A DNA stretch of 60,552 bases from a virus (lineage: Duplodnaviria; Caudoviricetes), in the IMG/VR virus record IMGVR_UViG_3300029267_000655, positions 1 to 60,552 of that record; one strand, given 5' to 3'. The position numbers were made by a program, and so were the translations under genes. Below, piece after piece: positions 13,728 through 58,020 of the stretch; the first letter of the stretch is position 1; each line of letters begins with the position of its first letter. A model generated the notes under the pieces. The model saw nothing but the letters and a program-made list of their open reading frames with translations. It did no database searches and was not told the DNA's origin.

Positions 13728-14108
13728 TTAAGCCTCAAAACAACTGACCACAACCTTAACCGCTGCGGTGTTTGCTTTGAGTCTTAGTGATGTTGACGTG
13801 AAGTTCCTACTCAGTCTGATTGTGTAGTCTTCTCCTGCCTGAATCTCTCCTAACTCGTGAAACGTAGCTCCATCCCAGATTCCGTACTCAACGTAGTTAG
13901 TTGAGTCTAGATTTTTGATGTTACATAGACCCGGTGTAGTCAGTTCTGATAGGTCTACGTCGGTTCCTGCCGTAGCTACTGCGATTGCTCCCGGTGTAGG
14001 TCCGTTAGTTCCGCTAACGTCTGCCTGAAAGCTACCGGGTCTTGAGGCAAAGTCTATGTTGCCCTTCTTAATTGTGAGAGAGCTTCTGATAGTTGCTTCA
14101 TTAGCCAC
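13728..14108 (-). CDS. Putative virion protein
   Basis: Beta-rich, Ser/Thr/Gly-rich; tail operon context. Confidence 0.55.
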   Translation of the reverse strand: MANEATIRSSLTIKKGNIDFASRPGSFQADVSGTNGPTPGAIAVATAGTDVDLSELTTPGLCNIKNLDSTNYVEYGIWDGATFHELGEIQAGEDYTIRLSRNFTSTSLRLKANTAAVKVVVSCFEA

Positions 14109-14112
14109 AGTA

Positions 14113-15126
14113 TTAAGCCTCCAAGTCTGTAGGGATACCTAGTTGAGTTAGGTCAGCTTCTATGTACTTCTTAACTCTAATCGTAGCTACGTTGCCTGTT
14201 GTAAGTGCTCCACTACCCGTACCCGTACCCGTACCCGGTAGAGTACCATCTATAGGTTGACCAAACCCGTCTAGTAGACACCTAGCATTCTCACCGTTGC
14301 GGTCTTTGTAACGTGAGAAGTGGGATGGGTTGTTGTAGTCTGGAGTTGCACCGTCGATGTCTATTAAGACCCAGTGATTGATACCTCTAGCTATCTCTTC
14401 GTCAGTCGGCCAACGTCCATGTAGTGCTTTTGTTCCTTCGTCAACTATGTCTCTGTCAAACGTAGCATAGTTGATGTCAAAGTCGAAGACACGGGTGTAA
14501 TACGTGTAACAAGTTCCATAGTAGTGCTTAGCCCAACTGATGTTACTTAGCTTAACTCGTCTAGGTCCGAGACCCCATAGCGTAGAGTCATTGACATTAT
14601 TGTAGAGTTGAGACAGAAGACTGAGCTGTAAACTAGCTACGTTCTGCTCTATGTGTACCGTAGGTCTACCTGCATCGAACTCTACTTGTGGTCCCCTAAT
14701 AATCTCGTGCGATGATGTCTTAATTGGGTTGCCGTCTTTGTCCTCTACAGCTTCCTCTGAGAACTTGACAAACGTACCACTAACCGATTGAGGCTTGAGT
14801 AGTGGGTCGTCTATCTCGTCGTCTTGACATAGAGACTGAGGATTAGTACTGAAGTACCTATCAACGTACCAAGCTGTGGTTGGCTCGTCTTTAGAGATGA
14901 TAGGACGTACTGAAGCTCTACGGGTACAGAAAGCCCAAATATCTAAATCGTTACCGAAGTTCCAAACATCACCCGGAACAGGTAGACCGTTAGTATTTAC
15001 AACAGTGTTTGGACCGTCAGTGTATAACGAACTTACTTTGAAGGTGACTCTATAAACTCTTTGTCCTTCGTCATCCTGCTCTAGCGACCAGTGGTTAGGA
15101 CCGTTGCCGATTATTGCCGTAGCCAT
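14113..15126 (-). CDS. Distal tail or hub protein
   Basis: Immediately downstream of the tape measure gene. Confidence 0.6.
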   Translation of the reverse strand: MATAIIGNGPNHWSLEQDDEGQRVYRVTFKVSSLYTDGPNTVVNTNGLPVPGDVWNFGNDLDIWAFCTRRASVRPIISKDEPTTAWYVDRYFSTNPQSLCQDDEIDDPLLKPQSVSGTFVKFSEEAVEDKDGNPIKTSSHEIIRGPQVEFDAGRPTVHIEQNVASLQLSLLSQLYNNVNDSTLWGLGPRRVKLSNISWAKHYYGTCYTYYTRVFDFDINYATFDRDIVDEGTKALHGRWPTDEEIARGINHWVLIDIDGATPDYNNPSHFSRYKDRNGENARCLLDGFGQPIDGTLPGTGTGTGSGALTTGNVATIRVKKYIEADLTQLGIPTDLEA

Positions 15127-41718: not shown

Positions 41719-41756
41719 GTAGACGGCAGGAACCCGTTAAGACTCCTGCCGTCTAC
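41719..41756. terminator. Perfect 13-bp hairpin upstream of the primase gene
   Basis: GTAGACGGCAGGA/TCCTGCCGTCTAC. Confidence 0.5.
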
Positions 41757-41774
41757 TAACACATCAACCAATAC

Positions 41775-42416
41775 CTATTGTAACCGACGTAGCAACTCTG
41801 CTTGAGCTTCGTCTATTCTCTGTAGTGCTCTAGGTTGATCCTGACCCATAGCAAAGCACTTAACCATCTCACGAGCCAAGTTAAAACCGATTCCTACAAT
41901 ACCTACCAAATCAACATTATCAGGTTGGTTCTCTTGGTCTTCCGGTGGCTCAGCAAAACCCGACAAGTTGACGCTATAGCTCGAAGGAGCGGGAATACAA
42001 CTGTCAACAACTCTAGCTTCTTCTTGTCGGTTTCGGTTCTCCTCTCTAGCAGACTCTTCACAGAACTTGTCTGGGTATCTAGTTCTAAGCTTTTCGATGT
42101 TAGCTGCCATAACGAAACCGAAGTCAAGTTGTATAGCATTACAGATAAGAGCTAGATACCAGCAACAGTCTCCTACCTCTTCTTTGATGTTTGTTTCGTC
42201 TAATCCTTGACCGTAGTACAACCACTTCTCTAGTTCAGAAGCTAGCTCTCCCACCTCACCAGTCAAACCTAACACACCGTGAATAAGTCTAATAGACGCT
42301 AACTCAGGCCAACCTGTAGTAAGCTCATTAGAGCAATCAATCAACCTATTTAGTGATCGTCTTTGGTCGCATTCTGTCCTAGACGCTGACACTTGGTACT
42401 TGCTCGGATTGATCAT
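41775..42416 (-). CDS. MazG-like nucleotide pyrophosphohydrolase (probable dTTPase/dUTPase)
   Basis: GLTGEVGEL...IKEEVGDCCWY...NIEKLRTRYP. Confidence 0.85.
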   Translation of the reverse strand: MINPSKYQVSASRTECDQRRSLNRLIDCSNELTTGWPELASIRLIHGVLGLTGEVGELASELEKWLYYGQGLDETNIKEEVGDCCWYLALICNAIQLDFGFVMAANIEKLRTRYPDKFCEESAREENRNRQEEARVVDSCIPAPSSYSVNLSGFAEPPEDQENQPDNVDLVGIVGIGFNLAREMVKCFAMGQDQPRALQRIDEAQAELLRRLQ

Positions 42417-42419
42417 TGT

Positions 42420-42977
42420 TCAATAGTTCCTTACTTCCCAAAACACGGTATTGAATCCGGGTAGCGTTCCCCACTTAATGCTAAACGTAGAGAACTCCAC
42501 AACATGACCAGGATATTTACTCAATAACTCTTGTAGCCAGTCGTAAGACTTAGGGCACAGACTTCGACGTAACAGCATTACAGCTTCAATCCCGTAGACT
42601 TGCCTACCATCTAGAGCTAGTGCGTCTCTCATAGGTAAACCGACTGCACTAGAGTAGAACAAACCTAAGCCTACAGGAGTCTGCTGAACTTCTCCTTGCA
42701 GCAAGTTACGTTCATGAGGAGCCATAGCACTGATGTAGAACTCATCGAGTCTACCCGCTCTCCTCAGTCTGTTGGCTACTCCTACTGATTCTAGTCTTCC
42801 GATGTTGTAGTATGTATCTCCTCCTCTTTTCCGGTTTCTAAAGTGAACCTTACCAAAGTACTTAGCTGACTTATACTCTTCGTAGTTATCCCAAGTCAGG
42901 CTAGCGTTACCAAACAACCCTTGTTTGTAGTACTTAACGAACTGAGCTTTGTTGTTGATAGGTCCGTTAGGTAACAC
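42420..42977 (-). CDS. Hypothetical protein, possibly ATP-grasp-like
   Basis: QGEV...VVEFS...VFWEVRNY resembles ATP-grasp C-terminal strands; weak. Confidence 0.45.
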   Translation of the reverse strand: MLPNGPINNKAQFVKYYKQGLFGNASLTWDNYEEYKSAKYFGKVHFRNRKRGGDTYYNIGRLESVGVANRLRRAGRLDEFYISAMAPHERNLLQGEVQQTPVGLGLFYSSAVGLPMRDALALDGRQVYGIEAVMLLRRSLCPKSYDWLQELLSKYPGHVVEFSTFSIKWGTLPGFNTVFWEVRNY

Positions 42978-44088
42978 GGGTAGCTTCCCGTCTTAGAATC
43001 CACTCGCTAGCAGCCATCTTCCAAAACGAGTCTTCAATATCGTTAGTAGCATCAATAGCTTTGATAGTGTCTCTTTCTTTGTAGTAGTAGTGGGCACGCA
43101 TCATAGGAGAAGCCACTTTACTAATGAACTCACTTTGACCTTCCCATCTACTAGTATCTCCTCTGTATTGAGGAGCGATAGTAGTGAAATCCGTGCAGAT
43201 CGGTCTATGTACGTCGAAAGGTACTCTAGCTCCATTCTCTGTTAGACTCTTGTTGATACTGATGTAGTTATCAGCGTGTCTAATGTATCCTTCGGGGTTC
43301 CATCTACTAGTGTAGACGTGAAGGTTATTGGTGAATTGATTGTATCTACCGATAGGAACATTCACCATCCTAGCTACGTATTCCTGAAGGAAAGAGAAGT
43401 GAACGACGTTCGCACCTAACATTCCCCAGATTAGATCATTGCTGCGGTTGCAGACAGTCATGTCCAGCTTACCGTCGTTGATTAGAAAGTAAGCATGAGT
43501 GTTACAGGGTACGTCTTTACCACCGTTCATAGCGTTGTGAAGGTCTCTCTTACCTACAGGACCTTCAGGGGTAATCCAGTTCGTAGAGTCCCACATCTGT
43601 AGAACACACCTACGACTATCCGGGTTGTCTTTCAATTCTTCACTAATAGCGAGAATCTGATCAAACCCAAACTGATTCCTCCACCTCTTACCGTAAGCAC
43701 CGTGTAGAGTCTTACCGTCATCGGAGTATCTACCGAAGTCCTTGATGTAATAAAGCAGAGGCTCTAAGTCGTCGCTACCGGACAACATCCAAAGAGTCTC
43801 GAACACATGGAAGAACGGGTTGCAGTCTCTAATAGGATTCAACAGGACTCTATTGGTAGGGTCTGTGAATGTGATATTGACTGGTACCAAGAGTTGGATA
43901 ACGTCTCCATCCCTACTATTACGTCTAGTCATCAACCTGTCTTCGTACGAGTATTCTTCAGTTCGAGTCTCGTACCTGTAAAAACCTAAGACTAAATCTT
44001 TGAATGCACTCTCCACACTAGAGTGCTCGAATCCAAAGCCTTCATTCATCCTACTCAGTCTTTCGTTAACCACAGTACGTCTCCACAC
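42967..44088 (-). CDS. Thymidylate synthase homolog, probable dUMP hydroxymethylase
   Basis: NPFFHVFETLWM, GAYGKRWR, KDVPCN (catalytic Cys), NRSND..WG..AN (Asn, dUMP specificity), NLHVY; neighbours are 5hmdU-modifying genes. Confidence 0.88.
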   Translation of the reverse strand: MWRRTVVNERLSRMNEGFGFEHSSVESAFKDLVLGFYRYETRTEEYSYEDRLMTRRNSRDGDVIQLLVPVNITFTDPTNRVLLNPIRDCNPFFHVFETLWMLSGSDDLEPLLYYIKDFGRYSDDGKTLHGAYGKRWRNQFGFDQILAISEELKDNPDSRRCVLQMWDSTNWITPEGPVGKRDLHNAMNGGKDVPCNTHAYFLINDGKLDMTVCNRSNDLIWGMLGANVVHFSFLQEYVARMVNVPIGRYNQFTNNLHVYTSRWNPEGYIRHADNYISINKSLTENGARVPFDVHRPICTDFTTIAPQYRGDTSRWEGQSEFISKVASPMMRAHYYYKERDTIKAIDATNDIEDSFWKMAASEWILRREATRVT

Positions 44089-44633
44089 TAGAAAGGAAGA
44101 TGACTTAGAGGGTAGTTGCTGTAGCGATACATAGAGTTCCCAACCGTAGGAAACACGTAAGACCTACCACCACACAACTCGAACTTGTCGCAGTTAGTAT
44201 CGCTATCGTCTATTAGTATTGTAGTAGGTTTAGCAAGTAGCTCCTTATGAGGTGTTAGCATGAACCGATCAAATTTTTTACCGAACATAGACTTGATCCA
44301 TCGAACCTTACCTGAGTGACTTGTGTGGCATCGACTAGGTGAAGATACGATGTACCACCTATTGCCTACGAACGACTCTACCCGCTCAATCAGTTCCTCG
44401 AAGTAGTTAGTCGGCAGTAACTCGAACCAGAAACTCTCTCCGGCTTCGTGTATCGGTTTCCAAAACTCGTCTAGAGAGCAACCCAACACGTCTGGTAGAT
44501 GCCAGTTCCCAGGATGATCCCGTAACCACACCTCGTCTAGCATCTCTCTGTCTATGTCTATCAGCTTGCAGTACCCTCCAACGAAGTCGGCCAGAACCCC
44601 ATCAAGGTCCAGAAACACGGTGAAATCAGTCAA
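44088..44633 (-). CDS. 5'(3')-deoxyribonucleotidase (HAD, NT5C-like)
   Basis: DLDGVLADF, SSPS, GKVRW, ILIDD. Confidence 0.85.
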   Translation of the reverse strand: MTDFTVFLDLDGVLADFVGGYCKLIDIDREMLDEVWLRDHPGNWHLPDVLGCSLDEFWKPIHEAGESFWFELLPTNYFEELIERVESFVGNRWYIVSSPSRCHTSHSGKVRWIKSMFGKKFDRFMLTPHKELLAKPTTILIDDSDTNCDKFELCGGRSYVFPTVGNSMYRYSNYPLSHLPF

Positions 44634-44775
44634 TTCTTGAGTCCTCCAAAGAATTTTCAGAAAAGTTGATGGTTTGGAGTTGTCTTCTACCGATAGCTAG
44701 ATAAGAATCTTCGGTGTTGAGTCAATTGGCGACTCACGCAAAAACAAACTCAGGTCAATCGAAAGGACCGCCAAG

Positions 44776-45177
44776 ATGCCTACCGCAACCCCGAAGAAGA
44801 AGACCGTCAAGAAGTCCTCTGCTAGCAAGACGGCTACCCCGAAGAAGAAGGCAGCAGCAAAGAAGACGACTACGAAGAAGAAGGCAGCAGCAAAGAAGGT
44901 AGCTACAAACAGTAGCGGAAGTAAGTTGGGTAAGCCTTTGATGGCTATTCTCGAAGTACTCAAAAAGGGTAAGTCACTTACCCGCTCTGAAATCTCTGCG
45001 GCTACAGGTATCAAGTCGGGTTTCACCTCATACCTAGGCCAAACAGACCCGGAGAAACGGGAAGAGGGAAGCCTCCTGGCACGTAAGCTTATCAAGATCG
45101 AGAAACACGATAGGGATGGTAAAGACGTGTTGGTTTACTCTATCACAGCTACAGGTAAGAAAGCAATATCAAGCTGA
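44776..45177 (+). CDS. Histone H1-like Lys/Ala-rich protein with a C-terminal winged helix
   Basis: TPKKK/KKKAAAKK repeats; ILEVL...LTRSEISAATG...YSITATGKKA; own RBS and terminator. Confidence 0.8.
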   Translation: MPTATPKKKTVKKSSASKTATPKKKAAAKKTTTKKKAAAKKVATNSSGSKLGKPLMAILEVLKKGKSLTRSEISAATGIKSGFTSYLGQTDPEKREEGSLLARKLIKIEKHDRDGKDVLVYSITATGKKAISS

Positions 45178-45195
45178 TTAAACCCGACCGGACAT

Positions 45196-45234
45196 AAACC
45201 CCACTAGAGCTACTTTGTTCTAGTGGGGTTTTTT
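45196..45234. terminator. Bidirectional terminator
   Basis: AAACCCCACTAGA/TCTAGTGGGGTTT between convergent genes. Confidence 0.75.
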
Positions 45235-46071
45235 CGTCAATTCTGCTATGTGGTCTGGATTGTTAGTACCTACGAGTGGTATATCTACCCACCTAGAAGC
45301 TTCCGTAAACGCCTCTGATGCCGTTTTGCGTAGCCTCCCCTGGTCTAGTGTGCTATGCCCTAGTGTCAGCATTCCTACTGATTTGCAGTATGGCAATATA
45401 GACTCACAAGCTCCCAGGTCATTCGAGTTTAACCGGACTTGTACCGACGACAGGTCATAGCCGAGAGACATCAGGCACCGTCTAACCGCTGTTATCTGAC
45501 CTAGAGAGTGGTTGGATACTCCTACGTGAAGAACCGTTCCGTTGTCTAACAGTTCTGCCAGTCCTTCGCAAGTTTGCTCCACCGAAGGTCCGCCTTCGTA
45601 GTTGGGCCAATGTATCTGGTACAAGAAGATAGAAGACACTTTCAGTCTATCTCTAGACCGTAGACCAGCATTGATTACAGCAGACTTGGACATATGGTTT
45701 CTTGCCACCTTTGTAGCAATCTTTGCTTTACATCCGGTTCTGCTGTAGATTTTACCTAGCTCTGTCTCTACTTTTCCATACCCATAACTTTCTGCGGTAT
45801 CAATCAAAACTAGACCTGATTCAGTTACTTGATTGATTACGTCTTCATTGTATTTCCACTTATAAGAACCCCAACCCAGTCTATGTTTTGCTCCACCTAT
45901 TACTTCGTCTCTTATGCGGTGGTTTTTACTGACTTTCTTGTCTACAGTTAGTATAGTCCCTCTATCTTGATTACTAAGTTGCTGATTCCAATTGTCATAG
46001 TCTTCAAGTCTTCCTCTACACTTGTTAGACCACATCAGTCCTCTAAGTCGGTCTCTAGCTATACTGTTCAT
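45220..46071 (-). CDS. Aldo/keto reductase
   Basis: Catalytic tetrad in IDTAESYG, IATKV and YQIHWP; VGVSN; VQ. Confidence 0.88.
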   Translation of the reverse strand: MNSIARDRLRGLMWSNKCRGRLEDYDNWNQQLSNQDRGTILTVDKKVSKNHRIRDEVIGGAKHRLGWGSYKWKYNEDVINQVTESGLVLIDTAESYGYGKVETELGKIYSRTGCKAKIATKVARNHMSKSAVINAGLRSRDRLKVSSIFLYQIHWPNYEGGPSVEQTCEGLAELLDNGTVLHVGVSNHSLGQITAVRRCLMSLGYDLSSVQVRLNSNDLGACESILPYCKSVGMLTLGHSTLDQGRLRKTASEAFTEASRWVDIPLVGTNNPDHIAELTKKPH

Positions 46072-46994
46072 AGAATGATCTCCAACACCTTGTCTGCAAC
46101 AAGCTTAGATAGACCTAGACCTAATCTATGTCCACCGGTGGCAACTACGATTCTGGAACTTACTTTATCGACCAAGAACCTATCTAGGACTGGTCTATAG
46201 CCTGTCTGTATCTTAACTGATTTGGGACTAGCTACTACAGTGTCCATAACCGTTCTTAGGTTTTTCAGTTTGTTGGGGCTTTCGACTTTCTCTGCTGTAT
46301 CTCCTACTTTGAGTCTTCCTTTTGTCCAAACCCTAACCGTGTGTTTTACATAGGGTTTTATCATTACTGATACTGGAAGTTCGGTAGTTGGCTTACCTTT
46401 ACAAGTTATACCTCTACCCAACAACTTACCAACACCTATCGGACTCATTCTACATACTTCGGTAAGTACAGAATCGGTTCTATACCCCGTCGCTAGTAAT
46501 ACAGACTTTGACTTAACAACAAACTCCTCTCCATTATCTATATTAGTGTAGAAAGTCTCTACGTAGTTCTGATGTTCTTCTATGTTCGACACTCTTCCTA
46601 CCCGCCTGATGTCGTTTACTTGGTCGGTAAGTGTCTCTGGTTCCGGTAAGTAGATTACTTTGCTTCTAGGTCTTATAGGTCTGTCTTGGTACATATTCCA
46701 AAAGTACTCAAGAACTTCATAGCCACCCACCGTCTTTAGCCAATCTATTGATTCACCTAACTTACTTCTGTCTAGGTTTTGAGGCCAGTACTTCGAGAAA
46801 ATGTCAGAAGAGTAAGCTCCAGGATCGCAAACAGCCGAAGCATTTCTACTTCCTGATTGTTTGTCTCCATCATCTATTATACAGCAGCTAATTCCTTTAG
46901 ACCTAGCTACATTAGCAGTAGCACTTCCCCAATAACCCGATCCCACTATCGTTAGGTCTATTGTCTTGTTTCCTACGGATTTTCTCGTCACCAT
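46068..46994 (-). CDS. FAD-dependent oxidoreductase (D-amino acid/glycine oxidase family)
   Basis: IVGSGYWG, SGSRNA, LATG, GYRP, VATGGHRLG. Confidence 0.85.
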   Translation of the reverse strand: MVTRKSVGNKTIDLTIVGSGYWGSATANVARSKGISCCIIDDGDKQSGSRNASAVCDPGAYSSDIFSKYWPQNLDRSKLGESIDWLKTVGGYEVLEYFWNMYQDRPIRPRSKVIYLPEPETLTDQVNDIRRVGRVSNIEEHQNYVETFYTNIDNGEEFVVKSKSVLLATGYRTDSVLTEVCRMSPIGVGKLLGRGITCKGKPTTELPVSVMIKPYVKHTVRVWTKGRLKVGDTAEKVESPNKLKNLRTVMDTVVASPKSVKIQTGYRPVLDRFLVDKVSSRIVVATGGHRLGLGLSKLVADKVLEIIL

Positions 46995-47779
46995 AGCTTT
47001 CCTCTCTTTCCTGCTCTGTATAGTTGTTGAGCTAGCCTAACACGACCGAATCTAGCAAGACTCTTTCTCAAAGCTTCTACGTCTTCTCCTACTTCGTAGT
47101 GACCGTTGAGATGACTCTTCCACTTACATAGAATCGTCTCAGCCTCTTGCGGTCCTAACGGTCTATCGAACGTAGGTGGAGCTAGGTAGCCGTCTAAACT
47201 CTCTAGAATATGCTCCGTAGCCCATCTATTTCGCTCTCTAACGTCCTCTGTTGCTTCGGATGGGTTTCGATACCTATCCTGAGCTAGAGACGCTCCTACC
47301 TTCGGAGAATCGAATAGGAACACGTCTTCTACCGGAAAGACTACCGGAACACCTAGAACTCTCTCTAGCATGTCGGCTACCTTGAATGAGATCCAAGGTC
47401 CGAACCCTACCCAACGCTGAACGTGTAGCATCACCTCAGTAGATTGAATAGGTTTCTTAACGTCTATCGGTTTGAATAAACCGTCTAAACCTACATCACT
47501 CAGGTAGTTAACAGACTTGGTAGCGTTATCTCCCCTGAAGTGTCTACGCTCAGGACACCTAGGGTACTTCTTAGACTTAGCCGCAGTCATCATAGCGTTC
47601 CAGTAGTCTTTCTTATACGTTATCCAACTGGCAGTACCGCTATGATAAAAACACCAGTAAGCTAGTAACCACTTCCGTAGTTGTACCTTACTCATGTTTG
47701 AGTTAATCAACACCGTATAGACTGGGTCTAAGTCTTCGTTGTCTAGGAGAGACTTACCAAACTCAATCAGTTCTAGCAT
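46988..47779 (-). CDS. Amino acid:DNA transferase (aGPT-Pplase2 family)
   Basis: DLDPVY, WLLAYWCFY, RCPERRHFRG, GFGPWISFKVADM, QEAETILCKWKSH. Confidence 0.85.
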   Translation of the reverse strand: MLELIEFGKSLLDNEDLDPVYTVLINSNMSKVQLRKWLLAYWCFYHSGTASWITYKKDYWNAMMTAAKSKKYPRCPERRHFRGDNATKSVNYLSDVGLDGLFKPIDVKKPIQSTEVMLHVQRWVGFGPWISFKVADMLERVLGVPVVFPVEDVFLFDSPKVGASLAQDRYRNPSEATEDVRERNRWATEHILESLDGYLAPPTFDRPLGPQEAETILCKWKSHLNGHYEVGEDVEALRKSLARFGRVRLAQQLYRAGKRGKLW

Positions 47780-49163
47780 CTTGGACAGGCACCTTTAACT
47801 CGACAAGACGTAATGCTCGACCTTCACCAGCAATAACGTCACCACACCTAGGTTGTCCTGGGTCATCTTCGTTTTCGCTTGCACAATACAAACAACCCGA
47901 AGGTGGGCATTCGTCTACTTCTCGGAATAGTTCATCTGGATTGTCCCTAGTAAATACCGGAACACGCTGCCCGTGGCACTGGTCTGCCGTAGTGTATTCC
48001 CTACCGATACTGACTCCTGTCTTGCTAGTTATGTTTCCTTGTTCGTCTCTTTCGTAACGATACTCGTAGCAAGTGGCGTAGGTTAGTCCGTACCGTTTGG
48101 CGTATTTACTATACATCTCATGGGCTTTTAGTCTGTACTCTTCTTCTACACACCTTTGTCCGCCCATGTTGTCGGTAAACAACTCCTTAAACTTCTCTCC
48201 TCTTTCTCCAAACCTCTTAACCATCCTCTCTTCCATACTGTTAGCCCAAGAGTAACCCGCTTCGACAAACTTAACGATGACGTGGTCTGCTCCTGCCTCA
48301 GCTAGCCTCTTGAATAGCTTAATGATGTCAGCATGAGAGGTTACACCCGGAATAATTGGATTGACTTGAATAGAGACATACACACCTTTGTTCTTGATCC
48401 TTGTGATGTCTTTTAGATGTCCTTTCAAGCTAAGTGCTCCGGGGGAAAGCCTACGAAAGTCCTCTGGAACTGATGTGTTGATAGACTTCTGAGCGTAGCT
48501 ATAGGGATTCTGGGTCATAAGGTCGATAGCCCATTTAGGGTATCTCAACCGACTAAGAAAGAAGATAGGCAAACCAACCTTCACAAACTCTTCAGCAGCG
48601 TATTGGGTGTTATGATAGATACTCTCCAAAGGTAGAAACGGATCAGTAAATGATGAGAAGTAACCCGCTGCTCCACGTCTGACTTTACGTAGCTGTTTCC
48701 TGATCTGTTCTCCGTAGTCCATAGGGACAGTGATAAGTCCGGTGCCACGATAGCCTCTGAACCCGGAGTTAACGTAACAGAAAGCACAACCAACAACACA
48801 CCAACCACCGTAAGGTTCAGTTAGTATAGCTTCAGTGAAACACGGTCTAGGTCTAACATTGTCTGGTTCGTGTAGACCTTTGTACCAACCTTGTAGCTGC
48901 TTTGCTTTATCTATCCGAGTATGTGGGTATGGTTCTAAATAGGCTCTGACTTCCTTCTTGTCTTCGTCTTTAGCGTTTCTGACCATACCCACCCGAACGT
49001 CTCTGACCTTAACTTTACGTCCGAAAACTTCATCATAGACTGTTTTGATTTCAGAAAGATTCTCCCTAGGTTCTGGACGCATGAAATAGTTGTAGACGGT
49101 ATTGGCTGTGTGTTCGTCTTCACCTACAGATTGAGTTGTGATCCAGCTTTGTTCTTGGTCCAT
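47763..49163 (-). CDS. Radical SAM enzyme (spore photoproduct lyase-like), extra C-terminal Cys cluster
   Basis: PYGGWCVVGCAFCY (CX3CX2C), SSFTDPF, NPIIPG, CPPSGCLYC. Confidence 0.88.
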   Translation of the reverse strand: MDQEQSWITTQSVGEDEHTANTVYNYFMRPEPRENLSEIKTVYDEVFGRKVKVRDVRVGMVRNAKDEDKKEVRAYLEPYPHTRIDKAKQLQGWYKGLHEPDNVRPRPCFTEAILTEPYGGWCVVGCAFCYVNSGFRGYRGTGLITVPMDYGEQIRKQLRKVRRGAAGYFSSFTDPFLPLESIYHNTQYAAEEFVKVGLPIFFLSRLRYPKWAIDLMTQNPYSYAQKSINTSVPEDFRRLSPGALSLKGHLKDITRIKNKGVYVSIQVNPIIPGVTSHADIIKLFKRLAEAGADHVIVKFVEAGYSWANSMEERMVKRFGERGEKFKELFTDNMGGQRCVEEEYRLKAHEMYSKYAKRYGLTYATCYEYRYERDEQGNITSKTGVSIGREYTTADQCHGQRVPVFTRDNPDELFREVDECPPSGCLYCASENEDDPGQPRCGDVIAGEGRALRLVELKVPVQDARTD

Positions 49164-49720
49164 TAGGTAACCTCACTCAGAATAGAACTAGAAATTTTAA
49201 CAACCTGCTTGAAACTTAAAACCCGACAATAGACACCATTCTGTCTTAATCGGGTTCTGGCTCGTTCTATAAGCTTGACCCTTTTTATTGTGTTGTGTGT
49301 ATTTAGGGGTTTGTCGTTACCTGCGTCTAGTCTTCTTTGTTTTACCTGTTCAATACATTTATCTGTATCGGTATTAAGAAATAGAACCCTAACATCGTGA
49401 CCTATCTCTTTTAGTTCTGTGGTCCACTTGACGTCTTGACTAAGAAGTAAACCCTCACACAATACCAGGTCTACATTGTTGGGGCTTAGTGACTGAACCC
49501 TCTGTATAAGGTCAAACACTGATCTAGCTGAACCTACATTGTCACATCCTCCGCAAGTTGACTCATAGTGACCTAAAATACAGACGGACCCACTATAGTA
49601 TCCAATCGGTTTTCTACGTCCTTCTTCAATTATAGGTACTAAGTCTAGACCCCCTATTATCTCTCTCATAGCTGTAGTCTTTCCACTACCGCTAGTTCCT
49701 CTTATCTGAAGTATCAACAA
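49163..49720 (-). CDS. P-loop kinase (catalytic half of 5hmdU DNA kinase, or a nucleotide kinase)
   Basis: IRGTSGSGKTT, GHY...GGCD, LCEGL. Confidence 0.8.
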   Translation of the reverse strand: MLILQIRGTSGSGKTTAMREIIGGLDLVPIIEEGRRKPIGYYSGSVCILGHYESTCGGCDNVGSARSVFDLIQRVQSLSPNNVDLVLCEGLLLSQDVKWTTELKEIGHDVRVLFLNTDTDKCIEQVKQRRLDAGNDKPLNTHNTIKRVKLIERARTRLRQNGVYCRVLSFKQVVKISSSILSEVT

Positions 49721-50577
49721 CCTACAAACTCCTTGTACTTAGACTTCGGTCTTCTACCATCAAAGAGTGTCCTTTCATACTTATCGAACTCACACAAACA
49801 GTTCTGGTAGTCTATTGCTTCGAGTCGTTTTGAAATACTTCTAGGTATTAGAGACTTGGTGTATTCTAGTACGTCGGTACCAAACCAATGATTAAACTCT
49901 GTTTGGCTCATAGGTGATTTTATGTCTCTACCTAACAACCTATTCATTCCTCTTCGACTACCCGGACCAATAGCAGCCCACCTCAACCTATCCTTAAACA
50001 CCACCGAAGTGGCCCACCTAAGATCAGCAGCTACTTGACCCGACATAAAAGAACCCATATTCCAATAATTCGATAGCGACTCAACCAATCTCTCTAATCT
50101 GTTATGAATCACTAATGGGTTATCTACAAACTGCTGGCAGTTTACTTTGATTACCATTTCAGACTTATCTGGCCAACCTTTAGATGCTCTTATAATATAG
50201 GCTCCGTTGAACACCGGAGCACTACTTTGTTCGGTTTTGTACTTCTCGATTCTAGCTAGGATTCTTTTAGGCTCCCACCGTGTAGGGAACCCGATAGCAT
50301 CTAGAGTAGATGGTTGATTAAAGTGACGAGCCAATACACAAGCCAACACTATGTTCTTGTGATCTTTGTAGGGTTCATACCAATTCTTGAGAAGCCACTG
50401 ACTAACTCTATCGTCCATCCTACGGACATTACAGAATCGGTACGTATTAAGAATCTCGTCATCGGTCCAAGGTCTAGGCTCACCGGCTTCCTTCTTCAGT
50501 CGGATACTCTCCCTCTCAGTGATCCAATAGACTAACCTCTCAAACGGGTCTAGCTTCTTAACGTCTTCTATGTTCAT
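49714..50577 (-). CDS. 5-hmdU DNA kinase helical domain (aGPT-Pplase1 family)
   Basis: ERESIR...PWTDDEILNTYRFCNVRRMDDRVS, GPGSRRG, QNCLCEFDKYER. Confidence 0.9.
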   Translation of the reverse strand: MNIEDVKKLDPFERLVYWITERESIRLKKEAGEPRPWTDDEILNTYRFCNVRRMDDRVSQWLLKNWYEPYKDHKNIVLACVLARHFNQPSTLDAIGFPTRWEPKRILARIEKYKTEQSSAPVFNGAYIIRASKGWPDKSEMVIKVNCQQFVDNPLVIHNRLERLVESLSNYWNMGSFMSGQVAADLRWATSVVFKDRLRWAAIGPGSRRGMNRLLGRDIKSPMSQTEFNHWFGTDVLEYTKSLIPRSISKRLEAIDYQNCLCEFDKYERTLFDGRRPKSKYKEFVGC

Positions 50578-52616
50578 AGACCTAATCCTTCTGCCCAGTT
50601 GTGTTCGTGGTACTCACAGCTTACCGGAGTAGGAATACCGAAGTCATCTCCACCTAGTTCCATGATCTTCATCACTTCTTTCATGATCGGTAGATTAGTC
50701 TTCCAAGGTTCAGTACCGCTACCCTTAGGAAAGTCAAACACAAGCTCATCGTGAACCTGCATCACCATATAGTAGCCTCTTGATCCTTTCTTACGGTTAA
50801 GGTCGTCTAACATCTCTTGAACTCTAACCATAGCCTTACACATCCACCACATAGCCGAACCTTGAACGTGGTAGTTAAGAGGAATCGTAGGCTTAACTCC
50901 ACCCCACCTAGTACGAGTACAGTAAAGAGGGTAGCCACGTTCTGGGTCTACTGTGCGGTCTGGAATCGTCTCTACGTAACCGTACCGATTGGCGAAGTCT
51001 ACCCACTTCTGATTTAGCTTAGCTTTCTCTGTAAGACGATCAGCGATGATCTTCTGTGCTCCGGGTACATGGTAGGCTCTATCTGCTGTCCCTGTACCGT
51101 CTTCTTTAGCTACTGCCCCGTATTGGTCAGCAAAGTTACCATTCTTAGTCCACTGGTACCAAGTGCTAGCATACTCCTTCTTACAGTCTGCTCCGTGCTT
51201 CTTAAACTTGTCGGGGTGAAGAATAGAGAAGATCAGAATGTGGTAACTGCCGTAATAGGGTGGTTCGTCCGGCTTCTCGAATATCTCAATCATCGCAGGT
51301 TCACCGCTCTCGTAGGCAGGTAACCTAAGCTCTATGTTCTTGGCATCACAACTCCACCACTCTCTACCTAGTGCTGGACCGAAGCCTTGACGTAAGTTGA
51401 AACCCTCCTTCTTGCTGATGTTCTGTTCGTTAGGGTTGCTGCTAGACCAACGAGTAGTGGCTGTACCGGTAGGGTTAAGACTAGGGTGAAGAACTACCCA
51501 AGGTCCGTTAGGTCTTCTGAGAGGAAGCCAGAACCGCTCATAACTCTCCATGTAGCTAAGTGCTGTGTCTCGCTTGCGTTTGTTTCCTAGAGCACGAACA
51601 AAGTCTAGCTGTGGACTAGGATCATCCAACGTAAACTCGTAGACGCTCAACACGTCTTTGTTGAGTAGGGGTAACCCGGTCTTAGGAGACTTAGCAACTA
51701 CCGGAAGACCTATGTGCTCGAAGCAAGCTGACTGAAGTGACTTGTTACTACCGCTCTTAGGCATAGAGAGTTCAGCACCATACATGCCCGCGATAGTGCA
51801 GCAGATGCGTTCAGCTTCTTCGCTCTGATCTCTATACTCATTAGTGAGTGCTCTAAACCTACTACGGTTAGCTGTGATACCTTTAGACTCCATACCGTAG
51901 ACGACTCTAGGAATCTTACACCTCTCTTCGTAGATGTGGTCTAATCCCTTCTCCTTAATCAACTCCATGTGCCGTTCATATATCTTGACCGTACACTGGC
52001 TGTCCATATTAGCGTAGTCACTAAGAACATCCCACCAAGGATGATCACTAGGGTAGTCCTCTTTTTGAGCGACAAGCCTAGGAAGCCAAGTGTCGTTTTT
52101 CCATACTTTGTCCTTAGCACTAGGTAATTGAGGAAGACCTTTCTTGGCTATTAACCAATCAGGTCTGTTGTGCTTAGCCCAATCCCTAGCCTGCTTACAT
52201 GCTGTCTCTAAGTCGTTGTCATACGGTTTGACATTAACACCTAGATAGACTAGAGCCAGTGTTGTAAGGTCTTTGGGTTGGTTAGACGCAAGCAAGTGAG
52301 CCGATATAAGAGTGTCCCTAACCCTAGACCAATCAAGGTTCGGTACAAAGTCCCCATCAAACAAGTAGTCTAGAGCAGCTATATCAAACTTAGCATTCTG
52401 AAACACTAACAGTTCAGCAGACTCTAACTTGTCCCAAACGTCTTCTAAGTCTGACTCAGCTACTTCAGGCTTACGAGTGTAGGGGTCTACGTACCACTCC
52501 CAGTAGTCTTGAGACTTATCTATCACACTTGTGCTAGTCGTTACTGCGAATGCCCTACAACCATGCTTTAAGTCGATTCCTGTCGTCTCTGTATCTACTG
52601 CAAGAATGCTAGTCAT
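50574..52616 (-). CDS. polA: DNA polymerase family A with 3'-5' exonuclease
   Basis: DTETTG, QNAKFD, TGTATTRWSSSNPNEQNI, DAKNIELR, KNGNFADQYG, NYHVQG, QVHDEL. Confidence 0.93.
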   Translation of the reverse strand: MTSILAVDTETTGIDLKHGCRAFAVTTSTSVIDKSQDYWEWYVDPYTRKPEVAESDLEDVWDKLESAELLVFQNAKFDIAALDYLFDGDFVPNLDWSRVRDTLISAHLLASNQPKDLTTLALVYLGVNVKPYDNDLETACKQARDWAKHNRPDWLIAKKGLPQLPSAKDKVWKNDTWLPRLVAQKEDYPSDHPWWDVLSDYANMDSQCTVKIYERHMELIKEKGLDHIYEERCKIPRVVYGMESKGITANRSRFRALTNEYRDQSEEAERICCTIAGMYGAELSMPKSGSNKSLQSACFEHIGLPVVAKSPKTGLPLLNKDVLSVYEFTLDDPSPQLDFVRALGNKRKRDTALSYMESYERFWLPLRRPNGPWVVLHPSLNPTGTATTRWSSSNPNEQNISKKEGFNLRQGFGPALGREWWSCDAKNIELRLPAYESGEPAMIEIFEKPDEPPYYGSYHILIFSILHPDKFKKHGADCKKEYASTWYQWTKNGNFADQYGAVAKEDGTGTADRAYHVPGAQKIIADRLTEKAKLNQKWVDFANRYGYVETIPDRTVDPERGYPLYCTRTRWGGVKPTIPLNYHVQGSAMWWMCKAMVRVQEMLDDLNRKKGSRGYYMVMQVHDELVFDFPKGSGTEPWKTNLPIMKEVMKIMELGGDDFGIPTPVSCEYHEHNWAEGLGL

Positions 52617-53214
52617 AGCCTGTATGTGCCTTCCTCCACTCGTCAAACGAATTGTAGAGCGGTTTGTACTCTTTCATTGTACCGTCTACTTCAACTACTA
52701 ACCGCCAATCTCCCCATTCTGCTGTCGGTCCTTCGTAGGGTTGTTTGGCTCTTAGTCCGGCTGTGTGTAGTACAGAGTCTCCGTGCTCTATCACTGCCCG
52801 ATACTTAGCGTGAGTGATCTTGCCTTCTTCTCTTAGTGCTTCGAGTCTACCGCTGTGAACGTAGTTATGACACAAGTGACAGAGCGGAACAGTCTCTACG
52901 TAGTAGTGTCTACCAAGCAGATAATCTGTCTCGTAGACTTCGTGTCCTTCTAGCCACTGTCTGTACCTAGCTTTGAGTTTATGCACACCGCAAGCTAGAC
53001 AGTGATAGTAGTTGGATTTGTAGGACTCTTTCCTAGTCTTATCCCACCAACTCTGTCCTAACACAACTCGTGGAGCTAGACCGTGCATAGGCTTCGGAAT
53101 GTTAGGACACAGAAGTAGCTCAGGCTTTCTCTTAACTAGCGTCTCTTTTCTTCGGCTACGTTTCTGTTCCTTAATCAACTTCCTTGTCACTGCACTCCGT
53201 TTCTTAGCCATCAA
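52609..53214 (-). CDS. HNH-like endonuclease
   Basis: CLACG...LEGHEVY...PLCHLCHNYVH. Confidence 0.75.
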   Translation of the reverse strand: MMAKKRSAVTRKLIKEQKRSRRKETLVKRKPELLLCPNIPKPMHGLAPRVVLGQSWWDKTRKESYKSNYYHCLACGVHKLKARYRQWLEGHEVYETDYLLGRHYYVETVPLCHLCHNYVHSGRLEALREEGKITHAKYRAVIEHGDSVLHTAGLRAKQPYEGPTAEWGDWRLVVEVDGTMKEYKPLYNSFDEWRKAHTGYD

Positions 53215-55428: not shown

Positions 55429-56289
55429 CTATTGTCCTCCTTTGATAAGTTTGTCGATATCCTCAAAAGTCGGGTCTACGATACAGTCTGGATACACTGT
55501 TCCCTTAGGTAACCGGAACTTTGTCGTATAGGTCGCATCAGGAGCAACCCGTAGGCAATACTCTATCTTACCTGTGTCTACAACCCGTTCCTTAACCTTA
55601 CCACCAATCTTACTCTTCTTAACCTCCATCTTGCTTCGTTTGAACGTCTGACAGATATAGTCACAAGCAGGATTCAACCAACCCACAACACTAGGAGTAA
55701 GAGCACTAGCAACGTAAGGAAGAATAACGTCACTATCATCCGAAGGTGTAAAGTCTCTTTCTTGAGCTACGATAACTATGTGCTGCTGAAGGTTGAGTAG
55801 CTGACGTAGACGCTCCTTCATTTGGACTGCTACTTGACCCCAGTCCTGTTGTTGAGCGATACCCCAACTAAGTTGAGCAGGAATCTCGTCTAGCTCTAGA
55901 ACTTCCTTCAGTACCAAGTCTTGAAGACCGCTAGCATGATCTAAAACAATAGTCTGAAACTTCGAGTCTTTAGCATACTCAACCAATTCGTTAAGCTCAC
56001 CAGAACTCTCTAGGTTTACAGATTCGATCTGCTTACGAGCATCCAACGGAACGCTACGAAGCTCACCGCTACCTACACCCCCACTACAGATGATCGTCAT
56101 GATAGGTTTAGGGAAGCTACTCCAAAACGTAGTCTTACCGCTACCACTCCTACCGTAGAGATTGATTTTATAGCCTACGTCTTCAACCGACATAGGTCCA
56201 AGTCTATCTAACACTCCTCCAGACTTCTTATTAGTCGTTGCTGTTGGTTTCTTCTTAGTCGGTCTCTTAACTCTCTTGACTGTAGGCAT
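55429..56289 (-). CDS. Sak4-like (AAA_24) recombination ATPase
   Basis: LYGRSGSGKTT, TIVLD, QQDWG, VAQE, VDPTF. Confidence 0.85.
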   Translation of the reverse strand: MPTVKRVKRPTKKKPTATTNKKSGGVLDRLGPMSVEDVGYKINLYGRSGSGKTTFWSSFPKPIMTIICSGGVGSGELRSVPLDARKQIESVNLESSGELNELVEYAKDSKFQTIVLDHASGLQDLVLKEVLELDEIPAQLSWGIAQQQDWGQVAVQMKERLRQLLNLQQHIVIVAQERDFTPSDDSDVILPYVASALTPSVVGWLNPACDYICQTFKRSKMEVKKSKIGGKVKERVVDTGKIEYCLRVAPDATYTTKFRLPKGTVYPDCIVDPTFEDIDKLIKGGQ

Positions 56290-57389
56290 CAGTCCTCCAA
56301 TTCAGGATAGAAGCTGTCGTTAAACTCAAGCTCTGTATTCGATCCTTCGTCTAGGTACGTATCGTAGTCCGTAGGTAGTCCAGCACTAATAGGATTGAAC
56401 ACCCCATAAGGTGTCCTGTAGTTGATTTCTGAAGAGAATGGTTCGGCTAGTCCTTCATCGCTAGACACAAAGTCCCACCACTTACAGAACTGTTCTAGTA
56501 CGTTTCTAAGAGTTTGTTTATAGAACCGTGTAACGTCCATCTCATCTAGTTGAACGTCAAACCTAGAGAAGAACTCTTCAGGCTGTTCTCTAATAACGCT
56601 ACCAAGTCTCTCGTAGAACTCCGGCAGGCTTTCTCCTTTCGGGTTAGTCTTAGTCGGCTTCTTCTGAACTATGCTGCCCTTACCGCCTGTTAGCGGTCTC
56701 TTCATTACGTTGTAGAAGATGTTTTTGACGGGTTTATATGGTAGACCGTATTGATAGACAGCAGCAGACTCTTCGAGCGTTAAGACGTAGAACATCGTCT
56801 GAAAGTCAAACGCTAGTTGAGACGCCTTCTTGTCTGGATTGTAATACATCCCTCCATGAGCTTTGTTTTCACATAGAGCTAGCGACTGGTTTTTACCGCT
56901 ACCGACTAAGTCAACACCGTCCCACTTACCCTTCAAATAGACGTTAGCAAGACGAGAGCCACCGACGTTAGGTATAGCGATTCCAATACAGAATACTTGT
57001 TCTCTAAGTAGTGGTTCAACTTTCTTGCGTGTTAGCTGCTTCTGTCCTTTCCAGTAGTCTAAGTAGACTTCGTATTGGACAAGACACACACTCATCCACT
57101 TAGCAATAGTCTCTTGTTGTAGCGGGTACTTCTTAGCGAGTTTGGTAGCATAGTTGGTTATAGCTTTCTTCCAGTCCTTGCCTTTACCGTGTGCTTCCTC
57201 TGCTTCATGAAACATATTACCATACTCAAGACCTTCTCTAAACGTCTCTGGTCCTTTCAATCCTTCAACAAGTCTAATCCTAGACCGCTCTCTACAGACT
57301 AGCCACTGTTGAAGCATGCTCTGAGTTATTCCCCCGTTCTCTTTATAGTACGGTCCTGCCCACACCGGTCTCTTCTTCGACTTAGACAT
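56289..57389 (-). CDS. PD-(D/E)XK (Cas4/RecB-like) exonuclease
   Basis: TQSML...C, YGNMFH, E, KGKWD, ENK, QTMFY. Confidence 0.8.
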   Translation of the reverse strand: MSKSKKRPVWAGPYYKENGGITQSMLQQWLVCRERSRIRLVEGLKGPETFREGLEYGNMFHEAEEAHGKGKDWKKAITNYATKLAKKYPLQQETIAKWMSVCLVQYEVYLDYWKGQKQLTRKKVEPLLREQVFCIGIAIPNVGGSRLANVYLKGKWDGVDLVGSGKNQSLALCENKAHGGMYYNPDKKASQLAFDFQTMFYVLTLEESAAVYQYGLPYKPVKNIFYNVMKRPLTGGKGSIVQKKPTKTNPKGESLPEFYERLGSVIREQPEEFFSRFDVQLDEMDVTRFYKQTLRNVLEQFCKWWDFVSSDEGLAEPFSSEINYRTPYGVFNPISAGLPTDYDTYLDEGSNTELEFNDSFYPELED

Positions 57390-57426: not shown

Positions 57427-57459
57427 ACCTATTATAAACCCTAAGGCAACCCCCTAGAA
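57427..57459 (-). promoter_or_regulatory. Possible leftward promoter
   Basis: TATAATAGGT in an intergenic gap, identical to the motif at 385-394; -35 is weak. Confidence 0.4.
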
Positions 57460-58020
57460 AGGGCAGCTAACCTCTTCAAATAAGTCCGAGAGCTGAACTA
57501 TCTGTTGCTGTATAGCTAGTCCTCTCTGACTGATGTCAGCTCTGAGAATAGCCGCAGGGTGTACAATCTCTACCGATGCTGTGTCCCTATACCACTCGTC
57601 GTCTTTGACAATCTTAGGCAACCACTTAGCAGCTAGCTTACCCACACAAACGAACGCACAAGGCTTAGCTACTCTAATGAACTCTAAGAGTCTTTCGGAG
57701 CAGGCTTGAATATGTTCCTTATGAGGTTCGTTGATCTTGTTACCGCCTAGCTCATCTTTAGGTATGCAACAGACCAAGTTAGTAAACGCTAGACGTACTT
57801 CACTCCCTCCAGCTTGTTCGATGGTAACGTCTAGTAACTTACCAGCAGGTCCAACAAATGGTTTACCTAGCACGTCTTCCGATTGACCCGGAGCTTCTCC
57901 GATAAACAACACGTCACAAGGTAGCTTACCTCTAGCTAGCACTGTCTTTCTTCGTACGTCACACAATTCACACTCAGTACAGTCTATCCACCGTTTCTTG
58001 AATGTAGTGTACTTTGACAT
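57454..58020 (-). CDS. Uracil-DNA glycosylase family 4 (Fe-S type)
   Basis: CTECELC, GEAPG, GKPFVGPAGKLL, TNLVCCIP, HPAA. Confidence 0.92.
   Translation of the reverse strand: MSKYTTFKKRWIDCTECELCDVRRKTVLARGKLPCDVLFIGEAPGQSEDVLGKPFVGPAGKLLDVTIEQAGGSEVRLAFTNLVCCIPKDELGGNKINEPHKEHIQACSERLLEFIRVAKPCAFVCVGKLAAKWLPKIVKDDEWYRDTASVEIVHPAAILRADISQRGLAIQQQIVQLSDLFEEVSCPF

Follow-up and report, generated by a model that had tools for sequence, protein, structure and literature searches.

What base does a phage build into its DNA when its thymidine hypermodification genes include a radical S-adenosylmethionine enzyme (rSAM), a flavin adenine dinucleotide (FAD) amine oxidase and an aldo-keto reductase (AKR)? 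The question is raised by the gene cluster at positions 41,775 to 50,577 of IMG/VR record IMGVR_UViG_3300029267_000655, a complete virus record with direct terminal repeats, whose whole 60,552 bp are called the window here. Thymidine hypermodifications shield phage DNA from restriction and other nucleases, and they yield enzymes for DNA labelling and sequencing chemistry. We conclude that the cluster is a real post-replicative thymidine hypermodification pathway of the kind found in phages M6 and PaMx11, with a new ending, and that the base it makes probably differs from those described. For that ending, an alpha-hydroxy acid attached to uracil C5 is the most economical reading, one that we consider about evenly balanced between right and wrong.

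Two characterised pathways frame the comparison. According to the available text of PMC8989533, gp54 and gp51 of M6 make N-alpha-glycinylthymidine (N-alpha-GlyT), the rSAM gp53 converts N-alpha-GlyT DNA in vitro into an isomer of equal mass, assigned as C-alpha-glycinylthymidine (C-alpha-GlyT), and the pyridoxal phosphate (PLP) enzyme gp52 decarboxylates the latter to 5-(2-aminoethyl)-2'-deoxyuridine (5-NedU). For PaMx11, the available texts of PMC8989533 and PMC11472151 describe cleavage of N-alpha-GlyT by the FAD enzyme gp47 (NGTO) to 5-aminomethyl-2'-deoxyuridine (5-NmdU), followed by acetylation through gp48 to 5-acetylaminomethyl-2'-deoxyuridine (5-AcNmdU). The window shares with the M6 5-NedU pathway the protein aGPT-Pplase1, the P-loop kinase, the rSAM (58% identity) and the amino acid:DNA transferase (AADT), beside a thymidylate synthase (TS) homolog and a DNA polymerase (PMC8989533), and with the PaMx11 5-AcNmdU pathway an AADT, a compact FAD fold and the adjacency of AADT and FAD genes (PMC8989533, PMC11472151). 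It differs from M6 in having FAD and AKR genes where M6 has the PLP enzyme, with no gp52 homolog or PALP enzyme, and in its gene order (rSAM-AADT-FAD-AKR versus AADT-PLP-rSAM-kinase in M6). From PaMx11 it differs in lacking the acetyltransferase, in possessing rSAM and AKR genes that PaMx11 lacks, and in its FAD enzyme, which is 17-21% identical, carries an insertion and has no equivalent of Trp51.

A sequence-only reading of the cluster had seen neither a PLP decarboxylase nor an acetyltransferase, and this held for the whole genome, in which PALP (PF00291), Pyridoxal_deC (PF00282) and Acetyltransf_1 (PF00583) have no Pfam match (the same searches gave matches in 14/14, 11/14 and 14/14 control genomes, respectively) and homologs of M6 gp52 and PaMx11 gp48 are absent. 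In three relatives (L006, L007 and L009 in our numbering of loci), the genes DNA polymerase-Pplase1-kinase-rSAM-AADT and the downstream genes are arranged as in the window, and a PALP gene, 45% identical to M6 gp52 in L007, follows directly after AADT; in this syntenic setting FAD and AKR therefore occupy the decarboxylase slot. Because the pair replaces the PLP decarboxylase of the M6-like relatives, the final base would be neither 5-NedU, nor 5-(2-aminoethoxy)methyl-2'-deoxyuridine (5-NeOmdU), nor 5-AcNmdU.

The pair is not peculiar to the window. With protein sequences and alignments of AKR, FAD and rSAM as queries, pattern scans of IMG/VR and of metagenome contigs yielded 115 loci, which were annotated by tblastn and iterated hidden Markov models (HMMs). 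In 10 distinct contigs a FAD gene lies next to an AKR gene (the window, L005, L011, L024, L025, L026, L028, L031, L034 and L110; L005, L010 and L030 are the same contig and were counted once), with identities to the window of 36-54% for FAD and 35-42% for AKR. For homologs known only from Logan, some AKR and FAD matches come from contigs of equal length (74928, 14840, 57646 and 3174 bp), a mere hint that the two genes share a contig there as well. The sequence-only reading had staked its proposal on AKR and AADT occurring together in related phages, and they do: AADT and rSAM are present in the five FAD-AKR contigs that reach far enough and show them, namely the window, L005, L011, L028 and L110. 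L005 and L028 repeat the window order rSAM-AADT-FAD-AKR-(Lys-rich gene)-TS-orf185-MazG, L011 and L110 carry AKR-FAD between AADT and rSAM, and the truncated L031 reads AKR-FAD-rSAM; the trio of rSAM, FAD and AKR thus recurs with two FAD subfamilies and in differing gene orders (L011, L031 and L110 versus the window). Across the locus classes, an AKR occurs only where rSAM and FAD both occur. It is present in 7/7 loci with rSAM and FAD (the window, L005, L011, L024, L028, L031 and L110), in 0/6 with AADT and FAD and no rSAM in the flanks (PaMx11, L111, L112 and L113-L115), and in 0/4 with AADT and rSAM and no FAD (M6, L006, L007 and L009). This rule is what would be expected if a carbonyl stays on the DNA only when the FAD enzyme oxidises the rSAM product, as oxidation of an alpha-amino acid leaves an alpha-keto acid on the DNA, and NGTO-type cleavage of the N-alpha isomer leaves an amine on the DNA and releases glyoxylate.

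The enzymes that would lead up to this branch point are recognisable by homology. The rSAM is 58% identical to M6 gp53 over 466 aa (E = 0) and 65-72% identical to its relatives in L006-L009. Its Pfam match is sub-threshold (19.7 bits versus a cut-off of 29.5), and its CX3CX2C motif, that of the radical SAM superfamily (SPL-like), lies at residues 122-129, with C122, C126 and C129 invariant in 15/15 aligned homologs; C396, C419, C424, C427 and C440 in the C-terminal part align with gp53 cysteines. The AADT has both features of clade 2 aGPT-Pplases, the FGPW helix (residues 126-129) and the catalytic Cys (Cys218 in CKWKSH), which correspond to motifs described for gp46 in the available text of PMC11472151. 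Because it is closest to two glycine transferases, M6 gp51 (37%) and PaMx11 gp46 (39%), with the diamine transferases of PhiW-14 and SH-Ab 15599 at 24-26%, glycine is predicted as its most likely donor. Among the organisms named for its 94 matching records, two categories of which were not itemised, there is no Salmonella or Klebsiella phage. In the P-loop kinase, residues 8-15 form a Walker A motif. Its identity is 37% to the PaMx11 gp49 region (over 157 aa) and 24% to the M6 gp54 region, and in Pfam it matches only AAA_33 and MobB, both below threshold. Pplase1, the HMUDK helical protein, is 31% identical to its M6 counterpart (28-33% across the M6 gp55 and PaMx11 gp50 regions) and has an isoelectric point (pI) of 9.35; the two genes together present the pairing of P-loop kinase and helical protein that characterises a 5-hydroxymethyl-2'-deoxyuridine (5hmdU) DNA kinase, as predicted from homology.

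For the FAD enzyme, sequence similarity to gp47 is confined to 32% over 66 N-terminal residues, with a PDB phmmer E of 0.076. Its AlphaFold2 model, built with 35 homologs at a mean predicted local distance difference test score (pLDDT) of 94.8, has chains of PaMx11 gp47/NGTO (8z79, 8z2o) as its three best PDB matches (E 1.8e-17 to 3.7e-16; TM 0.74-0.81), ahead of glycerol-3-phosphate dehydrogenase, iminodiacetate oxidase, glycine oxidase and sarcosine oxidase. In a 14-sequence alignment, Tyr180, Arg242 and Lys268 of gp47 align with the invariant Y215, R267 and R290, and Trp51 aligns with Ala60, just after which the window-type FAD family has its insertion; the available text of PMC11472151 gives the roles of these gp47 residues as wedge (Y180), carboxylate binding (R242), backbone contact (K268) and thymine stacking (W51). 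The pI of the enzyme is 9.40. We read it as an amine oxidase that flips bases out of DNA and takes a thymine adduct bearing a carboxylate, in a pocket unlike that of NGTO. By tblastn against cultured phages it matches only three Microbacterium phage records (26-28% identity), and an alignment search of genome contigs found none, hence no prophage or host lead. An analogy exists in the tRNA xm5U pathways, where the FAD domain of MnmC, which cleaves cmnm5U, is likewise a DAO-fold oxidase acting on a glycine-derived group at uracil C5 within a polymer (available text of PMC8989533). The two cases differ in that the substrate here would be DNA, with its C5 carbon supplied ahead of replication by an enzyme of the TS family. 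RNA offers a precedent for a hydroxy acid on uracil C5 in the carboxy-hydroxymethyl uridines, and we know of no AKR in the tRNA xm5U pathways.

The AKR is structurally conventional at its core. Its model (pLDDT 81.5) is the (alpha/beta)8 TIM barrel of the superfamily, and the Asp-Tyr-Lys-His tetrad that the sequence-only reading had called intact (D91, Y96, K121 and H154) proved invariant in 17/17 family members. The best sequence and fold matches are bacterial AKR11-type enzymes (B. subtilis YhdN/GSP69, 1pz1; 4pmj; probability 1.00), which share barrel and tetrad. Identity is about 25%, and the phage enzymes are set apart by an N-terminal extension that is conserved (with D7 and R19 invariant), by a C-terminal region of reduced length and, within the window clade, by a basic pI. 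N187, Q211 and S240, which we take to be NAD(P)H contacts, are also invariant. The family is phage-only, and a tblastn search of cultured phages gave nine weak partial matches, none in a hypermodification context. In the AKR tree (52 rows, with 34/85 loci left out, namely most cellular-type ones and open reading frames (ORFs) <250 aa), the window falls into a starred clade of eight rows, seven with an adjacent FAD gene and one from a truncated contig. Among 85 distinct AKR ORFs, an rSAM gene is found in the locus of 31/37 phage-type AKRs versus 0/48 cellular-type AKRs, and the six phage-type loci without one include three contigs <2 kb. The AKR has a pI of 9.15; Pplase1, kinase, AADT and FAD enzyme are likewise basic (8.97-9.40), and the nucleotide-pool proteins NT5C, TS homolog and MazG are acidic (4.6-6.1).

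Put together, these enzymes suggest the following route. In the nucleotide pool, by homology, the TS homolog would make 5-hydroxymethyl-dUMP, and MazG and NT5C would deplete dTTP/dUTP and dTMP. After replication, the P-loop kinase with the HMUDK helical protein would phosphorylate 5hmdU in DNA, as homology to reconstituted enzymes indicates; again by homology, the AADT would swap the phosphate for glycine to give N-alpha-GlyT, which the gp53-like rSAM would isomerise to C-alpha-GlyT. Gene content and co-occurrence are what we have to go by for the last two steps. The basic, NGTO-like FAD oxidase would flip out the modified base and oxidise its now-primary alpha-amine to an imino acid, hydrolysis of which would give a DNA-borne alpha-keto acid, 5-(2-carboxy-2-oxoethyl)-dU, and the AKR would then reduce the keto group with NAD(P)H to the alpha-hydroxy acid 5-(2-carboxy-2-hydroxyethyl)-2'-deoxyuridine. 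By our own arithmetic from thymidine (242), the nominal nucleoside masses from N-alpha-GlyT onwards would be 315, 315, 314 (keto) and 316 (hydroxy acid). As the best explanation of the locus as a whole, with this product included, the route is a prediction from sequence that we would expect to hold in about one case out of two. The order rSAM, FAD, AKR had been proposed in the sequence-only reading and gains indirect support from the exchange in the gp52-like slot, the co-occurrence rule, the NGTO fold match and the basic pI of FAD enzyme and AKR; the product, the isomer on which the FAD enzyme acts and the amino acid are, as before, what we infer.

Several observations weigh against this reading. 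Among characterised enzymes, the one nearest to the FAD oxidase, at the low identity given above, has the N-alpha and not the C-alpha isomer as its substrate, and glycine as the donor is itself a deduction. AKRs typically reduce aldehydes or ketones, 2-hydroxyacid dehydrogenases being more usual for free alpha-keto acids, and an anionic adduct is unusual among known thymine hypermodifications. On one ocean contig (L026:3-4239), FAD-AKR is preceded by a DUF7192 gene and followed by an M19 dipeptidase-like/amidohydrolase-like gene, with no AADT or rSAM within the 7.3 kb of the contig. Moreover, a second clade of phage AKRs (29 tree rows) adjoins rSAM genes that are 16-20% identical to the window rSAM, mostly without FAD, and PF18724, PF18723 and PF00303 all go unmatched in the one complete genome of this clade (G001, 74,972 bp, with direct terminal repeats). 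The absence of AADT, TS and HMUDK from G001 means that the AKR there is not acting on an AADT-derived adduct, and the link of the AKR may thus be to radical SAM chemistry more generally.

The alternative that survives best follows the same pathway to the keto acid, or starts from another donor, and arrives at a different final base; we consider it unlikely. It comes in three versions. In the first, the H2O2 co-product would oxidatively decarboxylate the keto acid, leaving 5-carboxymethyl-dU (calculated mass 286); in the second, decarboxylation would give an aldehyde that the AKR reduces to 5-(2-hydroxyethyl)-dU (272); in the third, the AADT would attach another amino acid in place of glycine. 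The preference of AKRs for aldehydes and ketones speaks for this alternative. Decarboxylation lacks an evident enzyme, as no PALP, Pyridoxal_deC or gp52 homolog was found in the genome (thiamine-dependent families were not searched), and with 5-carboxymethyl-dU as the product nothing would remain for the AKR to reduce. Regarding the donor, AADT specificity varies according to the available text of PMC13458397, and the identity of the window AADT to the characterised glycine transferases is no more than 37-39%; the insertion and the missing Trp51 equivalent in the window-type FAD enzyme would in addition allow another substrate geometry. Against another donor stands the rSAM, which is 58% identical to an enzyme acting on the glycine adduct.

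Rather less probable still, in our judgement, is that the FAD enzyme works like gp47 on N-alpha-GlyT, yielding 5-aminomethyl-dU and glyoxylate, with the AKR reducing free glyoxylate or another small carbonyl, the rSAM making C-alpha-GlyT in parallel and the DNA carrying a mixture of known intermediates. Such chemistry is favoured by the fold match to NGTO and by the retention of its wedge Tyr and its carboxylate-binding Arg, and the NCBIfam models that come closest to the AKR, though it scores far below the cut-off of each, are those of methylglyoxal and diketogluconate reductases. Against it stand the co-occurrence data: the 6/6 AADT+FAD contigs without rSAM would release the same glyoxylate and have no AKR, and the AKR is found only where rSAM is also present (7/7). 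Furthermore, the AKR is basic like the DNA-acting enzymes, and no acetyltransferase is available to complete a PaMx11-type pathway.

Last, it is very unlikely that FAD enzyme and AKR are a redox or support module for the rSAM, or auxiliary metabolic genes, the base then being C-alpha-GlyT or another rSAM product. In its favour, the phage AKR family tracks rSAM genes (31/37 versus 0/48 for the cellular type) even in phages without AADT, TS or HMUDK. Against it, reduction of an Fe-S cluster would require a one-electron cofactor, which AKRs lack; the FAD enzyme is most like an oxidase that flips bases out of DNA; most second-clade loci hold a methyltransferase-like protein and no redox partner in the slot that FAD takes in L024; and M6 gp53 worked in vitro without such partners (available text of PMC8989533).

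The second AKR clade deserves description in its own right, and its AKRs, beside distant rSAMs in phages without AADT, TS and HMUDK, had been missed by the sequence-only reading. Its genes are ordered helicase, Lys-rich protein, rSAM of about 350 aa, 240-aa protein, AKR, rSAM of about 470 aa, three unknowns and DNA polymerase, and the module lies at L012:7300-16600, L017:7270-16620, L024:7200-15250 and about 25 further loci (L013-L052). The two rSAMs, both SPL-like, are homologous to each other (hhalign probability 99.9). The 240-aa protein resembles a class I methyltransferase (atlas leads only, structural TM 0.62-0.64), and in L024 a FAD gene stands in its place. None of the unknown families exceeded 30% hhalign probability against the AADT, Pplase1, kinase, TS, FAD and NT5C profiles. 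Four genome records of this clade were searched (G001-G004, of which G001 is complete); G003 and G004, like G001, have no PF18724, PF18723 or PF00303 match, and G002 has only a TS-like fragment broken by stop codons. The module may be an undescribed DNA modification system. A Hint/intein domain (PT-HINT 1.2e-19, Intein_splicing 3e-17) splits the larger rSAM, that of about 470 aa, in L017:10829-13665. A chromatin-like partner shared by both phage groups was considered and dropped, as their Lys-rich proteins are not detectably homologous.

A bolder proposition joins both groups: that the phage of the window makes the anionic 5-(2-carboxy-2-hydroxyethyl)uracil as the first DNA base built by an AKR on polymeric DNA, and that the AKR family marks a wider, rSAM-coupled DNA modification chemistry, including a second system with two SPL-like rSAMs, a methyltransferase-like protein and an AKR and without 5hmdU, kinase or AADT. 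We put this forward tentatively and regard it as doubtful in its entirety.

We know of no AKR that acts on DNA, and none was found in our literature searches. In the full-text literature, no paper joined a keto reductase with aGPT-Pplase or with radical SAM phage hypermodification, with the proviso that the supplements of PMC8989533 might depict such a cluster; likewise, none joining a keto reductase with hypermodified DNA or 5-hydroxymethyluracil was among the matches listed, and in the literature after 2021 on glycinylthymidine, 5-NedU, aGPT-Pplase2 or the 5-hmdU DNA kinase no such cluster was apparent by title or abstract among the matches listed. The available part of PMC8989533 reports metavirome contigs that combine rSAM, PLP and flavin enzymes, and 'reductase' and 'aldo' do not occur in its main text. 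A singleton Rhodococcus phage system is without AKR or rSAM, as far as the available text of PMC11955845 goes.

The cluster would add a new class of enzymes working on DNA bases, the NAD(P)H-dependent AKRs, and an adduct of a new type, which may be an acidic hydroxy acid; those known so far are amines or amides. In addition, the co-occurrence rule offers a simple genomic predictor of the pathway branch used by a phage. The pathway is directly testable, as its first four steps have published assays and substrates and the predicted masses are distinct (315, 314 and 316).

With regard to the locus itself, ORF calling and Pfam searches recovered on the minus strand all the genes that the sequence-only reading had named (Table 1), and each of its family assignments was borne out by Pfam, motifs or homology to M6 and PaMx11, rSAM and kinase being sub-threshold in Pfam. 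From DNA polymerase through Pplase1, kinase, rSAM, AADT and FAD to AKR, consecutive genes overlap by 4, 7, 1, 17, 7 and 4 nt. Two runs, each from a separate study and either of them possibly the source sample, have Logan contigs that match the cluster without a single difference, one of 53.8 kb spanning all of it and one of 11 kb spanning 42808-50577, and short contigs of two further runs bridge the AADT/FAD, rSAM/AADT and rSAM/kinase junctions. Because these contigs span the cluster and its junctions, we do not attribute the gene order to faulty assembly. Three studies contributed sediment and seawater metagenome runs with identical or near-identical copies (word shares 0.81-1.00), and the phage is therefore an environmental one, marine or from sediment, that recurs. 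A megablast search of the cluster against 50,697 cultured-phage records returned no near relative; the cluster is currently confined to uncultured phages.

Table 1. Genes of the cluster and its immediate context, with positions in the window
Feature	Position	Strand	Basis or remark
Family A DNA polymerase	50574..52646	-	PF00476 DNA_pol_A 2.6e-28; first gene of overlapping run (context)
aGPT-Pplase1 / HMUDK_hel protein, 287 aa	49714..50577	-	PF18723, 6e-48
P-loop kinase, predicted 5-hmdU DNA kinase, 185 aa	49163..49720	-	Walker A; Pfam sub-threshold
Radical SAM enzyme, M6 gp53 homolog, 466 aa	47763..49163	-	268/466 identical to gp53
AADT (aGPT-Pplase2), 263 aa	46988..47779	-	PF18724, 8.2e-16
Compact DAO/GR2-fold FAD amine oxidase, 308 aa	46068..46994	-	PF01266, 3.4e-12
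Phage-type aldo-keto reductase, 283 aa	45220..46071	-	PF00248, 4.7e-28
Lys-rich small protein, 133 aa	44776..45177	+	Conserved neighbour; not assigned to pathway
NT5C-family (HAD) 5'-deoxynucleotidase, 181 aa	44088..44633	-	PF06941, 1.6e-6
TS-family enzyme, predicted dUMP hydroxymethylase, 373 aa	42967..44088	-	PF00303, 2.4e-19
orf185, conserved unknown protein	42420..42977	-	Syntenic in relatives
MazG-like nucleotide pyrophosphohydrolase, 213 aa	41775..42416	-	PF03819, 1.2e-9

The TS homolog is 40% identical to the M6 gp58 and PaMx11 gp51 regions and has its catalytic Cys195 in PCNTH (residues 194-198). The sequence-only reading had credited it with the dUMP-specifying Asn, and Asn227 (in GANVV) indeed aligns with the uracil-specifying Asn of bacterial TS, where MilA has Asp. 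Its best solved relative is the CMP 5-hydroxymethylase MilA (8.4e-25, versus 4e-12 for thymidylate synthases), and we predict a dUMP hydroxymethylase, with the limit that sequence alone cannot separate hydroxymethylase from methylase activity. NT5C also matches phrog_2643, a 5'-3' deoxyribonucleotidase (7.8e-11), and the MazG-like protein phrog_229, a MazG-like pyrophosphatase (3.6e-31).

Two small neighbours, orf185 and the plus-strand Lys-rich gene, had escaped the sequence-only reading. orf185 has no Pfam, PHROG or NCBIfam match, and a protein atlas comparison gave nothing usable. It is syntenic in L005, L007 and L028, being placed in relatives between the TS homolog and MazG, and its family comprises at least 194 metagenomic clusters at 90% identity, all of them lacking Pfam domains, with the contigs that carry it reaching about 77 kb; the family is much more widespread than the FAD/AKR cassette. 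orf185 may be an unrecognised nucleotide-pool enzyme. The Lys-rich gene, antisense to the operon, encodes a protein of pI 10.38 with weak winged-helix (helix-turn-helix) matches only, and tblastn and HMM searches found it kept at the same position on the opposite strand in L005, L006, L007, L009, L025 and L028. A minus-strand ORF at 44697-45095 (132 aa) is probably its low-complexity shadow.

Other endings are visible among the related loci. In L009:2665-7191, AADT is followed by PALP, Amidoligase_2, an ATP-grasp protein (GSH-S_ATP), an OTCase-like carbamoyltransferase domain and a Cupin_8/JmjC protein, and in L007:10048-12643 by PALP, an unknown 263-aa protein and Amidoligase_2; both cassettes probably make further undescribed thymine adducts built on 5-NedU. 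L011, with its order AADT-AKR-FAD-rSAM, has a Methyltransf_11-type SAM methyltransferase (3.1e-16) directly 3' of the rSAM and an MT-A70 DNA methyltransferase nearby (13878-14489, 16303-16872). The former, of small-molecule type, could add a methyl to the adduct, at its carboxyl or its hydroxyl group.

A scan for promoters and terminators gave counts equal to those of shuffled controls. Directly past the MazG stop codon lies a perfect hairpin with a 17-bp stem, 9 G-C pairs and a 4-nt loop (41719-41756), which overlaps the annotated TTG start of a primase-like ORF and, having no T-run, is not a classical terminator. On the other side, 5' of the polymerase, the minus strand encodes a PD-(D/E)XK nuclease and an AAA_24 ATPase (56289-57389 and 55429-56289), as well as a UDG-superfamily protein (57454-58020; PF03167, 2.6e-21). 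UDG-linked polymerases have been reported for T-modified phages, according to the available text of PMC13697223, and the occurrence of a UDG-family gene in a phage predicted to replace thymine fits that report.

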